Shown here piece by piece: positions 7 through 20,191 of a stretch of DNA of 35,183 nt; the first letter of the stretch is position 1; each line of letters starts with the position of its first letter. The notes below the pieces were generated by a model. The model was given only the letters and a program-made list of their open reading frames with translations. It did no database searches and was not told the DNA's origin. The translations under genes and the position numbers were made by a program. The stretch is from the UHGV virus genome UHGV-0213391; one strand, written 5' to 3'. This DNA comes from a virus.

Positions 7-411
7 ATGATGTATGATGTTGCCATGAAATATTTCTACTTCTGCGGGAATGTTGTCAAAGGCCCCATATCATTCAGGCAACTACAAATTTTAATTAAAA
101 ATCATGTCATAGGACCTGAAACATTAATTTGCGCAGAAGGAACAAATAAATGGTTCAAGGCTGATGAATTACTAAGGGAAAGCAATAAAACAACTTATTC
201 TACTAAGAAACTTCCAAATCGCAAAGAAAGTAATTCTTTTCTTTCCACAGTCCTTATATTTCTCGCAACCCTATCGATAGGAGGGGGCTTCATTATGGGG
301 ATTGTAAGTTTTGAAGCAGGATTAATTGGTATTGGAATGGGTTATATTCTGGGAGGTGCCGTAGTGGCTGTACTTTGGTACACGCTGTATATTTTACTTG
401 CCAAAAAATAA
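7..411 (+). CDS. Membrane protein with N-terminal GYF-like/DUF4339 domain and C-terminal TM segments
   Basis: N-terminus 'FYFCGNVVKGPISFRQLQILIKNHVIGPETLICAEGTNKWFKADEL' matches the DUF4339 pattern. The C-terminus is Gly-rich and hydrophobic. The region is AT-rich, unlike its neighbours. Confidence 0.45.
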   Translation: MMYDVAMKYFYFCGNVVKGPISFRQLQILIKNHVIGPETLICAEGTNKWFKADELLRESNKTTYSTKKLPNRKESNSFLSTVLIFLATLSIGGGFIMGIVSFEAGLIGIGMGYILGGAVVAVLWYTLYILLAKK

Positions 412-539
412 ATAAAGCCGGGAAAAGAGATTGTCAAAGACAAGCAAAAAAACAGTAGCCTGAAACACAGACAGAAGAATATTGTCAACAACCAACCAAA
501 TTCTCAAGCAGCAGGAACCATAACATTACCATAGATGAC

Positions 540-2690
540 TTGCTGGCTCTCAAGCCATCAAGCCTCACGCACGATCAACAGAGCTTCTCCACGTCCACCA
601 TTACAGCGGTTTACCCCGTCAGGATGCTTGGAGAAACTTTACCGTACAAGCAATTCGATACCGTCACCATCTCCCAAAACGGACAAGTCATCCTAGTGGG
701 GCTGGTGTCCAATATTGAAAAAGTATACAGCGGCAGCCAGCGGTCCTGGAGGATTGTTTTTTCCGACCCCTGGTATTACCTCGCTAATTGCTATGCCTTG
801 GAAAATGGATGGCGGCCGACGTTCGGGCTTTTCCCCCGTAAAGGCGTAGAGGGTATTATTCCCAAGGTCAACCTGAGCGGCGCTTTGTCCAGCGTGCTTG
901 ACATGGCAAAGCACCACCCAGCCAGCTATGAGCTGCGCATCAGAGACGACAAGCAGCTGATACCGTGGAATGCATCCTGCGACACTCTTCAAAGTCTGCT
1001 GCAGTCCATCCGGCGCTGGTCTCCGCGTATGGTCAGTTATTATGACTATACGGGAGAGAAACCGAAACTCATCATTACGGACTACGATTCTCTCGCCCCT
1101 ATTTCCCTGCCGCTGCAACCCTCCGCCACAGTCAAAAGCATAGACGTATCACTGTCACCGCGAGGCGACCTTGTTCCCCCCTGTGTTGCGATTGTGGCAG
1201 AATCTACCGGCAGTTCAGGCTATCGCGTCTCCTACCTTTCCAAGTACCCGTCGGACGGCGACCCTACGCTGCCGCATTCGATCGTCTATCGCGTCTCCTC
1301 TGACTTTTATTTCTCCAATTACAATGAGTCAGGCGGTTCCGCTTCCGAACCCCAGCCCGTAAAGACTTCCAGGTCCGGCAGCTTGGCTTATCAGAAGATG
1401 ATTGTCAAAGGGCGCCGCATTGACGCTGCGGACATGATCAACAGCTTTTGGGCACACCATTTCCCGTGGATGAAAGACATCCCGGCAGGGCAGCTTGTGA
1501 CCTATTCCGACCGGGTCGTCACTCCCAAGGCATGGGAAGGCACGGAAGAGGAAAAACCCAAGGGGTACGACACCACGGCAACCGCATACGAACTTACAGA
1601 CGGGCAGATTCACACAAAATCCCTGCGCCCTAAATGGTGCAATACCACCATCAAGCAGCGTCTAGCCATTCCGGAAAATGCCCCGGCCAAGTGGAGAGAA
1701 AAATTTAAGAACATCGGAGTAATTGGAGGAGGAGACACGCCTTGTTTCTGGCAGGAATTTTCCGTGGACCTGGTGACACTCGACCGCCCCAATGCTACCT
1801 ATCCGATTGACGGCATTTATAACGGCGAACAGCCGTCAAACGATGAAGACGGACCCTCTACCGGACCCAATGACGGAATACCTTATGCCGACATAGCAAG
1901 AACGGTGTGGGAATCCATGCAGGAACTTCCCTATGACGGGTCTATCTCCTTTGCGGCTCGCGGGGGGGCTCAATACTGGCAATACATGGGGCGCCGTGTT
2001 TCCTTGCTTGGCGGCAATCCGGAATGGGAAACTATCAATACCATGGTGCAGACCGTAAGCCGTGACTTGCAGACCAACGTTATTGAACTTTCCTACGGCT
2101 CTCCGTCTCAACTTGGAATCGAAGATTTACTTGAGCTTAATGAAGTGAATGTTATTTCAGATGCCTCTTCCGCGTTGGAAAACATGCAGGGAGCGCCGGA
2201 ACCAATTGACCTGACCTACGACCCCAAGCCGGAATCTCCGACCATTGGACAACAGATTACGACCGCCACCGGGTCTGAAGCTCCTGCGCCGGAATACGGC
2301 TTCCAGGTGCGCCTGACCAAGGACACAGAAGGAAACATCACCGATGCTCGCATCAAACCCGGCGCTCTCTACCTCAACGGCTCTCTCTTGGGATTCTACC
2401 CGACCGGAGACGGCGGCTCCGGCTCCTCCTGGGTGAAACTCCCGATGACCAGCGGGGAGGTCTGGATAAATGTCCACTTCGACCAGGACGCCAAGTTAAC
2501 CAGCGCGGAAATGTCAGGCATACCGGGAACGGTGTACCCGATCATGCTCGCCCAGGAAAAACCCGGCGTCAACTTTGACTATGCTTTTCAGGTTGCCGAC
2601 ATCAACGAAGACCAGGTCACGCAATACGCCCTGGGCATGATCCAGATCCCGGTCTTCGGAGGCACCTTCTACCCCTACGGACCAGCTTAG
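540..2690 (+). CDS. Large hypothetical protein (716 aa, TTG start in the ORF track; true start uncertain)
   Basis: Long uninterrupted ORF with coding-like composition and no recognisable catalytic motif. The ATG at 535 is in another frame. Confidence 0.5.
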   Translation: MLALKPSSLTHDQQSFSTSTITAVYPVRMLGETLPYKQFDTVTISQNGQVILVGLVSNIEKVYSGSQRSWRIVFSDPWYYLANCYALENGWRPTFGLFPRKGVEGIIPKVNLSGALSSVLDMAKHHPASYELRIRDDKQLIPWNASCDTLQSLLQSIRRWSPRMVSYYDYTGEKPKLIITDYDSLAPISLPLQPSATVKSIDVSLSPRGDLVPPCVAIVAESTGSSGYRVSYLSKYPSDGDPTLPHSIVYRVSSDFYFSNYNESGGSASEPQPVKTSRSGSLAYQKMIVKGRRIDAADMINSFWAHHFPWMKDIPAGQLVTYSDRVVTPKAWEGTEEEKPKGYDTTATAYELTDGQIHTKSLRPKWCNTTIKQRLAIPENAPAKWREKFKNIGVIGGGDTPCFWQEFSVDLVTLDRPNATYPIDGIYNGEQPSNDEDGPSTGPNDGIPYADIARTVWESMQELPYDGSISFAARGGAQYWQYMGRRVSLLGGNPEWETINTMVQTVSRDLQTNVIELSYGSPSQLGIEDLLELNEVNVISDASSALENMQGAPEPIDLTYDPKPESPTIGQQITTATGSEAPAPEYGFQVRLTKDTEGNITDARIKPGALYLNGSLLGFYPTGDGGSGSSWVKLPMTSGEVWINVHFDQDAKLTSAEMSGIPGTVYPIMLAQEKPGVNFDYAFQVADINEDQVTQYALGMIQIPVFGGTFYPYGPA

Positions 2691-2702
2691 CCAGACAATA
2701 CG

Positions 2703-3428
2703 ATGATCAGAATCTATCTATTCACCTATGCCGGAGACGCGGATGAGGCGCAAGCCTGCGTCCGGTGCGCCTTGGCAGCCCTCCCTGAAGCCGTCATTAC
2801 CGTGGCGGACGATGATGCCGACCCAGTACCGGAACGCACCAGAAAGGCGCTTCTGGCAGCCGGAGCACGGTATTGCCAAACCAGCTTCCCGCGCCACGGC
2901 AACCTGCGCGGCCCGGAATGCGTCCGGGGCATTATCTCCATGCTGGCCGGAGAAGCGGCGGACGATGACATCGTCGTCAAAATCGACTCGGATACGGCGC
3001 TGCTCAACGGAGCATGGATCAGGGACATGTCTGAAACGGGGGCGCACTGGTGCGCCTCGGGAGCAGATAGTCGGCAATTCTACGGTCTGTGTTATGCCAT
3101 GACCGGACTGGCCGCCAAACGAGCCGCGGAAGTGCTGATGCACGCAGATATGCCGGACAACGCTCCGGAGGATCTTACCATCGGGCACACGGTCATTGAA
3201 CTTTTTGGGGTCAGCAAGGGGAGAATTATCCCCCCCTGGACGCCCCAAAACAGGGCTGGCCGCTGGTCTGCATGGAACTGGTTCAGCATCTCGGTCGCCC
3301 CGGAAAAATATGTTGGGTTTGACGTTGTAACCGTGGGAAGCCCCCGTCCTCCCCATATTCCAAAAGCAAACCGGGTACGCGTCATGGATGCCTTATTCCG
3401 CTGCCGTTTTCACCAGAAAGAAAACTGA
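2703..3428 (+). CDS. Hypothetical protein with DxD motif (possible GT-A-like nucleotide-sugar transferase fold)
   Basis: 'DIVVKIDSDTALL' is a DxD-like motif in an alpha/beta-like context. ATG starts 13 nt after the previous stop. Co-oriented with the 716-aa gene and followed by a terminator. Confidence 0.45.
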   Translation: MIRIYLFTYAGDADEAQACVRCALAALPEAVITVADDDADPVPERTRKALLAAGARYCQTSFPRHGNLRGPECVRGIISMLAGEAADDDIVVKIDSDTALLNGAWIRDMSETGAHWCASGADSRQFYGLCYAMTGLAAKRAAEVLMHADMPDNAPEDLTIGHTVIELFGVSKGRIIPPWTPQNRAGRWSAWNWFSISVAPEKYVGFDVVTVGSPRPPHIPKANRVRVMDALFRCRFHQKEN

Positions 3429-3433
3429 TCATC

Positions 3434-3449
3434 TTGTTGATATCAACAA
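3434..3449. promoter_or_regulatory. Perfect 16-bp palindrome TTGTTGATATCAACAA immediately after the operon stop
   Basis: Read directly; followed by a ~45-bp AT-rich stretch. Confidence 0.4.
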
Positions 3450-3565
3450 CATGACCCTGAGGGTAGGAAAGGAACTGTACAAAAAGCTGAACATTATATT
3501 CATAAGTATATTTATAATCAATAAATATAATCCCTCCCTGTCCGCCAGTTTTTTATTTCGCTAGA

Positions 3566-3608: not shown

Positions 3609-3641
3609 ACGCTACATTACCACAGAAAACGGAATGCTTGC

Positions 3642-3678
3642 TGTACAAGTGGCTGTACAAGTTTTAAAAATTGTACAG
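3642..3678. repeat. Three TGTACA(A)G repeats overlapping the integrase start (candidate operator or arm-type sites)
   Basis: ctGTACAAGtggctGTACAAGttttaaaaattGTACAGttctATG. TGTACA is self-complementary. A fourth copy lies at about 3474. Confidence 0.4.
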
Positions 3679-3682
3679 TTCT

Positions 3683-4870
3683 ATGGCGGGGATTATCAAA
3701 AGAAGCAATAAATGGGTAGCCGTCTTCAAGACGCTGGACGGCAAAGAGGTCAGGAAAACCACTCGTATTGACGTGGTGCCAAAGGTTATTCCACCCGGGG
3801 CAAACAAAAGAGCGGTCATAGCGCAAAACGAGGCCAGGGCTCGCCTTATTGCCGAAGAGCTTGAGCATGGACACAAGACCGGCTTTGTTGACTCGCAGCG
3901 GCTCAAAGCTATCGCTGGCGGAGATGTTCAGGCGACCAGCCTTGGCAGAAAGGCCGTGAGCGTTGGAGCGTATCTCCATGAATGGCTGCAATCACGATCC
4001 GGTAAGATTCAGGCACACGAAAGAGACGGGAAGGCCATCAAGCAGTTTATTTTGTTCCTGGGAAATGATGGAGGGCAAGCCATAGCATCCATCAACAAAG
4101 ACACCGTGAGACGGTTTTCGGAGACAGAAATGGAGCGCGTGTCATCCGGTACAGTGTCAAGGTATCTCGAATCTCTTTCCTGCGCGTTCAATCAGGCTGT
4201 CGAAAAAGAATTGATCATCTCCAATCCTTTCAGGGGAGCCAGGCTGGACAAGAAAAAAAAGCAGGACGACAAACAGGAGCGCAGCGCGTTCACCGTGGAG
4301 GAAGTCAAAAGGCTTGTAGAAATTTTACCGGGTGAATGGCCGGACATGATACGGGTATGCCTTTATACGGGCGGCCAGCGTTTGGGCGATATTGCCACCC
4401 TCAGATGGGAGCAGATCAACCTTGACGGCGGCCTGATTGCCATGACCTCACAAAAGACCAAGCGGCGTATGAACAAGCCCATCATCGGGCCGCTGAAAGA
4501 GATTTTGGAAGAGAGGGAGAGATATTCCATCAATGAATTTGTGTTCCCTTTGGCCGCCATGAAACATGCACAAGGCGGCGGGAAGTCCAGCAAGCTCTCT
4601 CTTGAGTTTACCGGACTGCTGAAAAAACACGGCATCATTTCTTCCGGGGAAAGGAAAGGGAAGGGAGACAAGCGCGTGCTGTCTGAAAAAAGCTTTCACA
4701 GCCTGAGGGCGACCGCGGTAACGATTTTACGGTTGGCAGGGGTGCCGGCTGACTTGTGCCGATTCATCGTAGGACATGACTCTGAAGAGATTGAACGGGT
4801 GTATTTCCGGCCCGACTCGCAGGATGTCGTGCATGCAATAGAGGAAATATCCAGCAAGATTGTTTTGTAA
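3683..4870 (+). CDS. int: Tyrosine-type phage integrase
   Basis: The N-terminal arm-binding-like segment 'KRSNKWVAVFKTLDGKEVRKTTRI' matches phage integrases. The C-terminus 'HSLRATAVT...GHDSEEIERVYFR' carries the H-x-x-R ... Y catalytic signature. ATG at 3683; the ORF track's TTG is at 3671. Confidence 0.85.
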   Translation: MAGIIKRSNKWVAVFKTLDGKEVRKTTRIDVVPKVIPPGANKRAVIAQNEARARLIAEELEHGHKTGFVDSQRLKAIAGGDVQATSLGRKAVSVGAYLHEWLQSRSGKIQAHERDGKAIKQFILFLGNDGGQAIASINKDTVRRFSETEMERVSSGTVSRYLESLSCAFNQAVEKELIISNPFRGARLDKKKKQDDKQERSAFTVEEVKRLVEILPGEWPDMIRVCLYTGGQRLGDIATLRWEQINLDGGLIAMTSQKTKRRMNKPIIGPLKEILEERERYSINEFVFPLAAMKHAQGGGKSSKLSLEFTGLLKKHGIISSGERKGKGDKRVLSEKSFHSLRATAVTILRLAGVPADLCRFIVGHDSEEIERVYFRPDSQDVVHAIEEISSKIVL

Positions 4871-4973
4871 TCCTCTCGGGAGGAATTTGTCATCACGTGA
4901 ACGGATAATCGATGACACAACGTCTTACCGGAGTCACAAGACATCAAATCTCATGAAAAAACAGGAATTCCTA

Positions 4974-5072
4974 CCCCCCCCCCCCCCCACTTTTATCCCT
5001 TCAATTCCCACGGTGTGTGGTAGAAAAAAAAATAAAAAAAAAAAAAGGAATCCCCACCCCCCCCCCCCCCCC
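4974..5072. repeat. Homopolymer cluster: C15 (4974-4988), A9-T-A13 (5024-5046), C16 (5057-5072), with a GGAAT(T)CC..C-polyC direct repeat
   Basis: Read directly. Each C-run is preceded by GGAATTCCTAC or GGAATCCCCAC. Confidence 0.8.
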
Positions 5073-5137
5073 GTATTATAACGCTTTAAATGCTAGCGTG
5101 TTAGGAGAAAAAATATCAGCAAGAAAGGGTTACGTCC

Positions 5138-5284
5138 ATGTCAGGTAACGTGATGCTTGTGTTTTTCTTGCTGGCCGTTCTTTTCGGGGCCACTTGTTTC
5201 GGTCTCGGCATAGTGGAAGGTTGCCGGAGGACAATCAAAAAAATACTGAGGAATATTTCAAAGGGAGCGAGGGAAGGGGAATAA
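5138..5284 (+). CDS. Small hydrophobic protein (48 aa; one TM, basic C-terminus)
   Basis: AAAGGG sits 8 nt before the ATG. The sequence is MSGNVMLVFFLLAVLFGATCFGLGIVEGCRRTIKKILRNISKGAREGE. Its stop abuts the stop of the convergent repressor gene (TAA TTA). Confidence 0.3.
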   Translation: MSGNVMLVFFLLAVLFGATCFGLGIVEGCRRTIKKILRNISKGAREGE

Positions 5285-5662
5285 TTATTCCTCTTTGTCT
5301 TTCTCCTCCTGAAGCCGTTTGAGAAGCAGTTCTTTATTGTCTCCCGCATATTCCAATACGTAAATAATCCAGTCTACGATATTCATACCGCAGGATTTCG
5401 CATACTTGTTGAATTCGAGGAATTTATCAGGTGAAACCTTGAGGTTAATGTCGAAATCAGGAATAGATACTTGGCTATCGCCTGAAGGCTTGGGTTGGCT
5501 CATTAGGTTGTCGATAATGATCATTGCCTTTTTAGGGATGGTGCGGCTTTTTGAAAACCAGTTGTTGACTACTAGGTATTTCACGCCGCACTGATCTGCC
5601 AGCCATTGCCGAGTTTTCCCAATTTCTTTAAGCCATTGATCTATCTCTTCTTTCGTGTGCAT
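5285..5662 (-). CDS. CI-like HTH (XRE-family) transcriptional repressor
   Basis: 'IGKTRQWLADQCGVKYLVVNNWFSKSRTIPKK' fits a helix-turn-helix. It is transcribed divergently from the early operon, is AT-rich, and the intergenic region carries an operator-like inverted repeat. Confidence 0.6.
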   Translation of the reverse strand: MHTKEEIDQWLKEIGKTRQWLADQCGVKYLVVNNWFSKSRTIPKKAMIIIDNLMSQPKPSGDSQVSIPDFDINLKVSPDKFLEFNKYAKSCGMNIVDWIIYVLEYAGDNKELLLKRLQEEKDKEE

Positions 5663-5793
5663 GACGATGTAATATCATCGTTTAATGACACGAGCAAGCG
5701 AAAAAAAACAATCATACAGTGATATTTTTGTCTTGCTATATAATCAAACAGTGGTAAACATAGGGCATCAACCAACCAAATCATCACAGACCC
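5663..5793. promoter_or_regulatory. Divergent early promoter/operator region
   Basis: Inverted repeat ACGATG-N6-CATCGT at 5664-5681 abuts the repressor start. An extended -10 (TGCTATATAAT, 5734-5744) faces rightward toward 5794. Confidence 0.45.
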
Positions 5794-7656: not shown

Positions 7657-8514
7657 ATGAGTAACGCAAAACCTTATAAACCAAAATACGAGGACAGGCA
7701 AGGCCAGCAAACGGCCCTTACCCTGTCAACCCCGAAAGAGCTTGCCGGCTTTTTGATCAAGTCAAAAACCTCCATTGCCGCCGCGCTGCCGGCCCATCTC
7801 AACCCGGACCGCATGATTCGCCTCGCGGTGACTTGCTTTTCCCAAAATCCCGCCTTGCAACGTTGCTCTGCTGTGAGCATCTTTTCCAGCTTGCTCATTG
7901 CTTCCCAGCTTGGACTTGAGCCGGGAGTTGCCGGGCAGGGGTATCTTATCCCCTACAAGGGCAAATGCACCTTTGTTCCCGGCTGGCAGGGTCTTGTTGG
8001 GCTGCTCAATAACACGGGCAGGGCTACCGCCTGGACGGGTGTAGTTTACGAGGGCGACCATTTCCAGTTTGAACTTGGGGCATATCCCATCCTCCGCCAC
8101 GTTCCCGGCATCAACTACGGGGACGAGGACAAAATGACATGGGCCTATGCCTGCGCCCGGGTCAACGGTGCGGAAACCCCTGTCATTGAGGCGTGGCCCA
8201 TGGAGCGCATCTGGCGCCACCGCGACGCGCACAACGAAGTTGGAGAAAAGCACTACTCCTACAAAAACCCCGAAATGTACGCCCGGAAGGTAGTCCTGCT
8301 GCAAGTCCTCAAGTACATGCCGAAAAGCGTCGAAGTAGCAAACGCTATCGAAGTTTCCCACGCCGCGGAAACGGGGCGCATCGTCAAAATCGATGACGGC
8401 GTTGTCATTGACGGCGAAATCGTGCCGGAAGATGACCCCGGCATGGATGACTACCCGCTGGACCGTCAAGACCAGGCTCCCGCCTCTGAACCCTCCACCC
8501 CAAACCTCCTTTAA
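7657..8514 (+). CDS. recT: RecT-family single-strand annealing protein
   Basis: 'LIASQLGLEPGVAGQGYLIPYKGKCTFVPGWQG' is the RecT core motif; the length is about 285 aa. Confidence 0.85.
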   Translation: MSNAKPYKPKYEDRQGQQTALTLSTPKELAGFLIKSKTSIAAALPAHLNPDRMIRLAVTCFSQNPALQRCSAVSIFSSLLIASQLGLEPGVAGQGYLIPYKGKCTFVPGWQGLVGLLNNTGRATAWTGVVYEGDHFQFELGAYPILRHVPGINYGDEDKMTWAYACARVNGAETPVIEAWPMERIWRHRDAHNEVGEKHYSYKNPEMYARKVVLLQVLKYMPKSVEVANAIEVSHAAETGRIVKIDDGVVIDGEIVPEDDPGMDDYPLDRQDQAPASEPSTPNLL

Positions 8515-19948: not shown

Positions 19949-20000
19949 GGTTGACAATATATCAACATATCTATATGTGTTGATGTATATTCAACCGCAG
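19945..20000. promoter_or_regulatory. AT-rich dyad-symmetric island with TTGACA between terL and the portal gene
   Basis: gggTTGACAATATATCAACATATCTATATGTGTTGATGTATATTCAACC is an extended imperfect palindrome in a GC-rich context. Confidence 0.4.
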
Positions 20001-20191
20001 GGTGGTGAAACGGTATCATATGAGGTTCCTGTCCTCATGTCGGAGGTCCAACTCCTCCCCCTGCAACCAACCTTTTTCTTTCCTCCCGCCGCAGGTTTAA
20101 CGCTGTCCGAAATATCCTCAACGCTCCGAAGCTGGTCGCCCAACAGGAGACCAGAATCAAGGAACTGGAAACAGACCTCGCCCGGCAAGCC

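Follow-up and report, generated by a model that had tools for sequence, protein, structure and literature searches.

The window considered here is the whole stretch of DNA analyzed, 35,183 nt in length, and, by its correspondence to a known phage, it is a complete, circularly permuted genome of a temperate Akkermansia phage. Across most of its length it is 70–85% identical to Akkermansia phage DTMo-2021a (CP084202; hereafter DTMo), in a circularly permuted order: window positions 115–3536 correspond to the end of DTMo and positions 3633–4873 to its start. Since the window ends abut in DTMo coordinates, the window represents the whole circular genome. A phage-encoded tRNA-Arg(CCT) is located mid-genome, at positions 19996–20069.

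The gene preceding the studied tract, on the plus strand at positions 3671–4870, encodes a tyrosine integrase (Pfam PF00589, E-value 3e-12, with SAM-like domains); its DNA is 79% identical to the int gene of DTMo-2021a, and the cassette containing the tract starts directly downstream. The attP core, at approximately 3529–3548, matches the 3′ end of tRNA-Ser(GCU). The homology of integrated relatives to the window starts at position 3529, inside the 3′ end of this tRNA gene (10046–10138 in contig L034, 328–420 in L013, 7428–7520 in L022, and 8778–8870 in L043). One relative, L044, adjoins tRNA-Ser(GGA) instead of tRNA-Ser(GCU).

On the other side of the tract, a convergent minus-strand gene at 5285–5662 encodes a putative transcriptional regulator of 125 aa, with a weak match to phrog_4779 (E-value 9e-6) and no match in Pfam. 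The original prediction had placed the tract between the integrase and the repressor; the integrase is indeed upstream, the downstream gene has only weak PHROG regulator matches, and a 48-aa ORF (5138–5284), not listed in that prediction, lies in between. Farther away, the intergenic region between the divergent regulator and early genes contains AATCATACAGTGATA and AATCAAACAGTGGTA, direct repeats separated by 32 nt (5710–5756). These are candidate operators and have no relation to the TGTCAT palindromes found close to the tract.

The tract itself reads exactly as originally described, with C15 at 4974–4988 and C16 at 5057–5072, and no other run of C or G in the window reaches eight nucleotides; approximately 1e-4 runs of at least 15 C are expected from its base composition. 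The 68-nt spacer (4989–5056) includes A9 (5024–5032), T5033, and A13 (5034–5046), and ends, after A13, with GGAATCCCCA. The reported direct repeat is present and is longer than had been stated: positions 4956–4996 and 5039–5079 align over 41 nt with 85% identity and a period of 83. Two mechanically called ORFs run through this region, of 73 aa (4860–5081) and 43 aa (5017–5148), and their products have no match in the protein collection. The inverted match TTATCCCTTCA between positions 4993–5003 and 4898–4908 was judged to be due to chance.

The plus-strand ORF at 5138–5284 encodes a predicted single-pass membrane protein of 48 aa (MSGNVMLVFFLLAVLFGATCFGLGIVEGCRRTIKKILRNISKGAREGE), which has a hydrophobic segment near the N-terminus and a basic tail at the C-terminus. 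Most substitutions relative to the DTMo copy fall in third codon positions, and thus the ORF is a real gene. The homologues of the protein form 14 protein clusters, all unnamed, and no family was found for it in Pfam, PHROG, or PADLOC. Approximately 60 related loci carry the gene, each with one poly-C tract about 65 nt upstream of the ORF start.

The gene and the tract are parts of a conserved cassette, in which a palindrome is followed by a conserved 45-nt block, the poly-C tract, an AT-rich leader, and the 48-aa ORF. The palindrome, TGTCATC-N16-GATGACA at 4888–4917, was read from the sequence and could function as an operator or as a hairpin in the leader; its counterpart in DTMo-type relatives is TGTCATGAC...GTCATGACA, and the palindrome is retained in contigs L010 and L053. 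In the latter two the cassette has no integrase upstream. The cassette moves as a unit, and hence the tract belongs to the small gene rather than to int. In L053 (the same as L010), positions 1–1450 contain the palindromes, the block, C16, and the small ORF, and ahead of them lie two ORFs on the minus strand, encoding 158 and 109 aa.

The flank upstream of C15 (4920–4973, plus strand), whose conserved block ends with GTCACAAGACATCAAATCTCATGAAAAAACAGGAATTCCTA, is identical or near-identical across all of the approximately 32 relatives spanning the tract, and holds a conserved ATG (4953–4955) of a possible leader ORF. The sequence downstream of C16 (5073–5137, plus strand) is the leader of the small ORF, with an AT-rich imperfect dyad and a Shine–Dalgarno-like AAAGGG. 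Some changes in the dyad are symmetric (AC/GT vs. TT/AG), and mismatches are equally numerous. An RNA hairpin (5117–5173, plus strand) is predicted to cover the Shine–Dalgarno-like sequence and the start codon of the small ORF. Its 10-bp outer stem, CAGCAAGAAA/TTTCTTGCTG, is a perfect 10-nt inverted repeat (5117–5126/5164–5173), and the hairpin appears in both the minimum free energy and centroid folds, with a z-score of only -1.7. In the consensus fold of 14 variants the outer stem is invariant, and hence provides no covariation, and the inner stem is kept via G–U changes, with one compensatory pair. A hairpin that encloses the start of a small ORF in this way recalls translationally silenced mRNAs of type I toxins.

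The tract in related phages

Related loci were collected with a 21-mer conserved on the downstream side of the tract, which retrieved 17 viral, 24 metagenomic, and one genomic contig, by a protein-based scan (eight viral contigs), and by exact-protein look-up (seven more). All of them either contain a single tract or terminate in one, and two tracts occur in none outside the window. Hence, the comparison with related genomes, which the original prediction had proposed as a check, did not recover the doubled structure, and instead yielded a single tract at the same site. For example, in DTMo-2021a, the prophage of a cultured strain, one C12 run occupies the homologous site between the same flanks. 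In the spanning contigs the tract lies between ...CATGAAAAAACAGGAAnTnnTA and G(C/T)ATT(A/TG/TA)TAAC.

Within the family, the tract consists of 5, 8, 9, 10, 12 (the mode), 13, 15, 16, 18, or 19 C, nearly always of at least eight; lengths 8, 12, and 18 are found within one flank type. Interrupted versions are CCAC9 in L033 and C4TC11 in L044. The most informative relatives are five contigs from five samples (L070–L074), which are 99.9–100% identical to the window over 1.4 kb on the left and 98.2–99.9% over 1.3–1.7 kb on the right (four out of five at 99.4% or more), and carry the private GTATTATAAC variant of the window. In all five there is only one tract, which is C10, C13, C16, C9, and C15, respectively. 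The length of a homopolymer determined from short reads may err by a base or two, and the difference between 9 and 16 exceeds that. Two further contigs, L075 and L076, end inside the C-run.

Lengths from 9 to 16 among near-identical genomes indicate that the tract mutates far faster than its flanks: its length shifts while the flanks gain 0–1 substitutions per 3 kb, a pattern that reads as the signature of slipped-strand hypermutability. The originally predicted hypermutability is thus supported for the poly-C itself, with its position kept in every relative and its length varying among C9, C10, C13, C15, and C16 in near-identical genomes. It also fits the host, as in Akkermansia muciniphila a slipped-strand change from G9 to G10 in Amuc_1413 has been observed in culture (PMC13055324).

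Two features of contingency loci, a G/C run of at least about eight nucleotides and length polymorphism among near-identical genomes, are both present here, and the real tract plausibly represents, by these features, a homopolymer contingency-type locus in an Akkermansia prophage. The proposal of a phase-variable locus hence agrees with the fixed position and the length polymorphism of the tract; a switch in expression is putative. We found no description of this tract in literature searches.

Across the tract, left-flank types are combined with different right-flank types (A-1/A-4, E-5/E-1, D′-4/D′-6), with module boundaries also at approximately 5265, at the 3′ end of the small ORF. By the distribution of these types, the tract region is a mosaic junction within the phage family.

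Origin of the doubled structure

The second C-run, together with the poly-A and the direct repeat, is very probably an artefact of short-read assembly on one real tract; we infer this from the sequence pattern, the near-identical genomes, and analogous contig ends. The suggested mechanism is as follows. Forward reads that pass the C-run, and reverse reads that pass the G-run, would lose phase and continue as error-ridden copies of the far flank, and the assembler would then have joined the two degraded tails at their A-rich parts. The resulting order would be the true upstream flank, C15, a degraded downstream flank, poly-A, a degraded upstream flank, C16, and the true downstream flank. Accounted for in this way, positions 4989–5038 would be the error-laden forward-read tail after the homopolymer, that is, the true downstream flank (GTATTATAACGC...GGAGAAAAAATA) repeated in register in degraded form, with an inflated A-run at its end, and positions 5039–5056 would be the error-laden reverse-read tail after the poly-G, which repeats the true upstream flank, likewise degraded, and belongs to the 41-nt repeat family. 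C15 and C16 would be the first and the second representation of the same single tract, which is present once in the near-identical L070–L074 and has 5–19 C in the relatives. A join of two dephased read tails at the point where both turn A-rich is, in our opinion, highly likely, and for the explanation as a whole, i.e., one real hypervariable tract belonging to the small gene and doubled in the window by misassembly, we estimate a probability of about 80%.

Several observations support this reading. The extra 83 nt occur in none of the approximately 32 relatives spanning the tract, including the five near-identical genomes, and a 28-mer from the spacer had no match in exact scans of viral, metagenome, and genome collections. 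The first 35 nt of the spacer, compared with the true downstream flank in register, agree at 19 out of 35 positions (about 54%; shuffle p of about 0.001 with seven offsets allowed), and MAFFT places the real flank of the relatives on the spacer, up to GAAAAAATA. This likeness is significant only in the pre-specified in-register test: in local alignment of the spacer against all segments of the window, scores elsewhere were at chance level, and the plain local score to the flank was unexceptional. The last 18 nt of the insert are the upstream flank AAAAAACAGGAATTCCTA read as AAAAAAAAGGAATCCCCA. A search for another source of the spacer in the window found no second copy at up to three mismatches. 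A repeat pair of a diversity-generating retroelement was also considered and rejected, the mismatches being mixed (A to T, G to C, T to C, C to G) and not confined to adenines.

The inner copies are about 54% and 80% identical to the respective flanks, that is, about 46% and 20% diverged, and for the remainder of the genome the divergence from the closest relatives is 0–2%. Divergence of about 46% in an inner copy, compared with 0–2% elsewhere, rules out gradual decay of a real duplication. Moreover, the degraded halves are exactly the sides that are reached only after the homopolymer: 3′ of C15 on the plus strand and after G16 on the minus strand.

Similar damage is seen at the ends of related contigs. 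Approximately 22 of about 58 end in the tract, at it, or a few bases beyond it, and approximately 25 of the 58 break or turn chimeric there. For example, within the first 100 nt of L020 an Alu-like human sequence is fused at the tract via CCTCCC/poly-C, and the contigs L011 and L063 end in the Nextera adapter. The contigs L038 and L060 open with degraded copies of the upstream flank beside C18 and C27, respectively, and share the errors of the window: CATGAAAAAC is changed to CAAAAAAAAC, with CATG absorbed into the A-run, and T or A beside the run is changed to C.

We consider it quite unlikely that the window has instead a real private 83-bp tandem duplication, formed by slippage between GAAAAAA microhomologies and yielding two hypermutable tracts. 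The boundaries of the repeated unit coincide with two A6 runs (4956–4961 and within GGAGAAAAAATA at about 5104–5115), which are a plausible substrate for slippage, and absence from databases leaves room for a private mutation. However, fresh copies should be identical, and the inner halves are 46% and 20% diverged; the insert is missing in five genomes that are near-identical to the outer flanks of the window; and the errors occur only on the post-homopolymer sides, in the same pattern as at the contig ends of L038 and L060. Neither near-identical copies nor presence in close relatives, either of which would mark a genuine tandem duplication, was found.

The assembly artefact, one of the options raised in the original prediction, is therefore supported for the doubled structure by the absence of the insert from near-identical genomes and by the degradation of the inner copies. 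The type of artefact differs from the one that had been named: it is unlike the collapse of homopolymers on a single-molecule platform and resembles short-read dephasing combined with a false join. The window is mainly a caution for phage genomics: at long G/C homopolymers, assemblies from short reads can break or become corrupted, and about 40% of the contigs of this family fail at the tract. If the insert is an artefact, the window carries 83 fabricated nucleotides and a spurious 73-aa ORF, and any gene call through the insert is spurious.

Possible roles of the tract

The real tract plausibly acts as a contingency-type switch or a rheostat for the small membrane-protein gene, which we regard as its most likely function. 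Among the routes by which its length could affect the small ORF, we prefer one via the leader reading frame, a change of promoter geometry being an alternative mechanism. In the preferred mechanism, the leader frame that starts at the conserved ATG would read the tract as poly-proline codons; in one of three length classes it would stay open across the hairpin and stop 8 nt inside the small ORF, so that translation of the two would be coupled. Length modulo 3 of the poly-C within the leader frame would thereby gate the passage of ribosomes through the hairpin that buries the start of the 48-aa ORF. Taken on its own, this specific gating scheme is tentative and rather doubtful.

The leader ATG (4953–4955, starting MKKQEFL) lies 20–21 nt upstream of the tract and is conserved in all relatives. 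Two of the frames entered after the tract stop within 5–9 codons. The third is open in every flank type; it crosses the hairpin with the Shine–Dalgarno-like AAAGGG and the start codon, and its stop lies 8 nt inside the small ORF. Of the 26 spanning relatives scored, 9, 8, and 9 have the respective frames. No Shine–Dalgarno sequence was found for the leader ORF, and its peptide differs between flank types (MKKQE.. vs. MKNWK..). In a coding test of the long frame, variable columns were distributed as 7/5/7 by codon position, giving no sign of selection at the peptide level. All five stop triplets avoid the long frame, which is not significant ((2/3)^5 = 0.13). The frame-variable ORF beginning with MKKQEFL, as suggested in the original prediction, thus exists as an ATG-initiated frame, but has no Shine–Dalgarno sequence, no conserved peptide, and no frame preference.

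The absence of frame preference agrees also with another possibility, namely, that the tract is a hypermutable but functionally neutral hotspot in the leader between the genes, with a bias toward expansion maintaining its length. It is consistent with the lack of a canonical promoter around the tract, with the tolerated lengths from 5 to 19, and with the interrupted versions in L033 and L044. On the other hand, the position of the tract is identical in every relative, with at least six left-flank and at least six right-flank types, and also in the L010/L053 context, and the tract nearly always has at least eight C, while neutral long homopolymers are normally lost. We treat neutrality as a serious rival, although not as the favoured outcome.

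Similarly, the tract could be a spacer or an upstream phasing element of a promoter of the small ORF, in the style of Bordetella fim or Neisseria opc/porA. It is located about 65 nt upstream of a discrete gene with its own terminator-like hairpin (5273–5296), -10-like hexamers (AAAAAT or TAAATT) are found 24–29 nt before the ATG in all variants, and the modal length of 12 could be the "ON" length. Yet no -35-like hexamer is located 16–18 bp from any -10 candidate across the tract; a scan of the plus strand for sigma-70 -35/-10 pairs found no site bracketing it, and hence the flanking elements at about 16–18 bp that define a promoter-spacer switch are absent. The bases to the left of the tract vary (ATATTA, TTCCTA, TTTCTA, ATTGTA, and others), none resembling TTGACA, and these 6 nt are the least conserved part of the flank. 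Moreover, a 14-bp range of lengths would leave most variants off. Overall, this role seems rather unlikely.

Still less likely is a leftward transcription unit, in which a minus-strand promoter would start in the G-run and produce an antisense RNA against the small-ORF leader or the 3′ end of int. Such a unit could be of the type I toxin–antitoxin kind or retroregulatory, with the length of the G-run tuning initiation, e.g., by reiterative transcription. A minus-strand sigma-70-like site, CTAACA-18-TATAAT, is found at 5104–5075, with the predicted start inside the G-run; it is the only sigma-70-like match beside the tract, agrees at 10/12 positions, and has its perfect TATAAT at a distance of 2 nt from the G-run, and promoters of A. 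muciniphila are of the -35/-10 type (PMC4782308). The small ORF also resembles a type I toxin, having 48 aa, an N-terminal transmembrane segment, a basic tail, and a hairpin-buried start. In DTMo-type relatives a strong minus-strand terminator lies just past int, implying that some leftward transcript must cross the cassette in these phages. At the same time, about 40% of the relatives (the TTTGTA and TTTATA flank types) have TACAAA or TATAAA, with the critical final T lost, the -35 element is weak (3–4 out of 6), and the window type is devoid of the minus-strand terminator. No RNA family supports the unit either: a search of Rfam at E-values up to 1 returned only a chance match to a plant miRNA (20 bits).

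The terminator was seen in L002 (DTMo-2021a) at 1353–1328 on the minus strand, right after the int stop, as an 11-bp GC stem followed by T7; it is part of a 110-nt segment absent from the window type.

Finally, we consider a role of the tract in attachment or recombination, or as a G-quadruplex or i-motif element, as had also been proposed originally, very improbable: the flank types are reassorted across the tract, so that recombination junctions fall nearby, and G15–16 could fold into a quadruplex, but the start of prophage homology at 3529, in tRNA-Ser, places attP 1.4 kb away and leads to rejection of the att reading, and most relatives have 8–13 C, too short for a three-tetrad G-quadruplex or a stable i-motif, so that a run of folding length (about 15 or more G) is not conserved.

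The real feature is thus a position-conserved poly-C of fast-changing length in the lysogeny module of widespread A. muciniphila prophages. The host is a health-relevant gut commensal in which phase variation via a G9 tract has already been shown. If the leader-frame scheme holds, clones of Akkermansia lysogens would stochastically turn the 48-aa gene of the prophage on or off, and if the tract gates the 48-aa protein, it offers a testable case of prophage-driven phenotypic heterogeneity in A. muciniphila. A cultured A. muciniphila lysogen carrying DTMo-2021a exists (NBRC 114322).

Comparison with known systems

Similarly to the tracts of Neisseria opc/porA, Bordetella fim, and the G9 of Amuc_1413 (PMC13055324), the tract described here is a G/C homopolymer at a fixed position 5′ of a gene, whose length differs between otherwise identical genomes. 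Unlike these contingency loci, it is phage-borne, precedes a gene for a 48-aa membrane protein, and is located outside annotated coding sequences. It also differs from the promoter tracts of Neisseria and Bordetella, as no -35/-10 pair brackets it.

Among phages, Campylobacter phages reportedly have hypermutable poly-G tracts in the genes of receptor-binding proteins. Those tracts are likewise phage-borne G/C homopolymers that create subpopulations by slipped-strand changes; however, they act via frameshift inside structural genes of virulent phages, whereas the tract studied here lies in a leader within the lysogeny module of a temperate phage. No comparable tract was found in Akkermansia phage Chantilly (L077). 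This phage has a G9 at 8197–8205 inside a tiny CDS (8186–8281, minus strand) among structural genes, which may be a slippage-prone site in an unrelated Akkermansia phage.

The small gene shares with hok/mok/sok, TxpA, and BsrG the general layout of a prophage gene for a small hydrophobic peptide with a hairpin-enclosed start. With these loci it may further share an upstream overlapping frame, which could couple translation, and a candidate antisense promoter, both being predictions. There is no sequence similarity to type I toxin–antitoxin loci, and the likeness is in gene architecture only. The 48-aa peptide fits the size range of type I toxins (hydrophobic, less than 60 aa), which, with no family match, makes it compatible with such a function and nothing beyond that. 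To our knowledge, a homopolymer that sets the leader frame is no feature of known type I systems.

The genes of superinfection-exclusion proteins Sie2009 and Ltp are located between int and the repressor gene of temperate siphophages. The likeness here consists in a gene for a small membrane-associated protein in the int–repressor interval, predicted to be expressed in the prophage; the difference is that the 48-aa protein has no homology to Sie2009 or Ltp and no evidence of a lipobox or a signal peptide. Under the leader-frame scheme, the gated 48-aa protein could serve in superinfection exclusion or act as a toxin of the type I kind.

As for the doubled structure of the window, its counterpart is found in homopolymer-induced errors of short-read assembly, with the same contig breaks, degraded flank copies, chimeras, and adapter remnants, and with no difference between the two.
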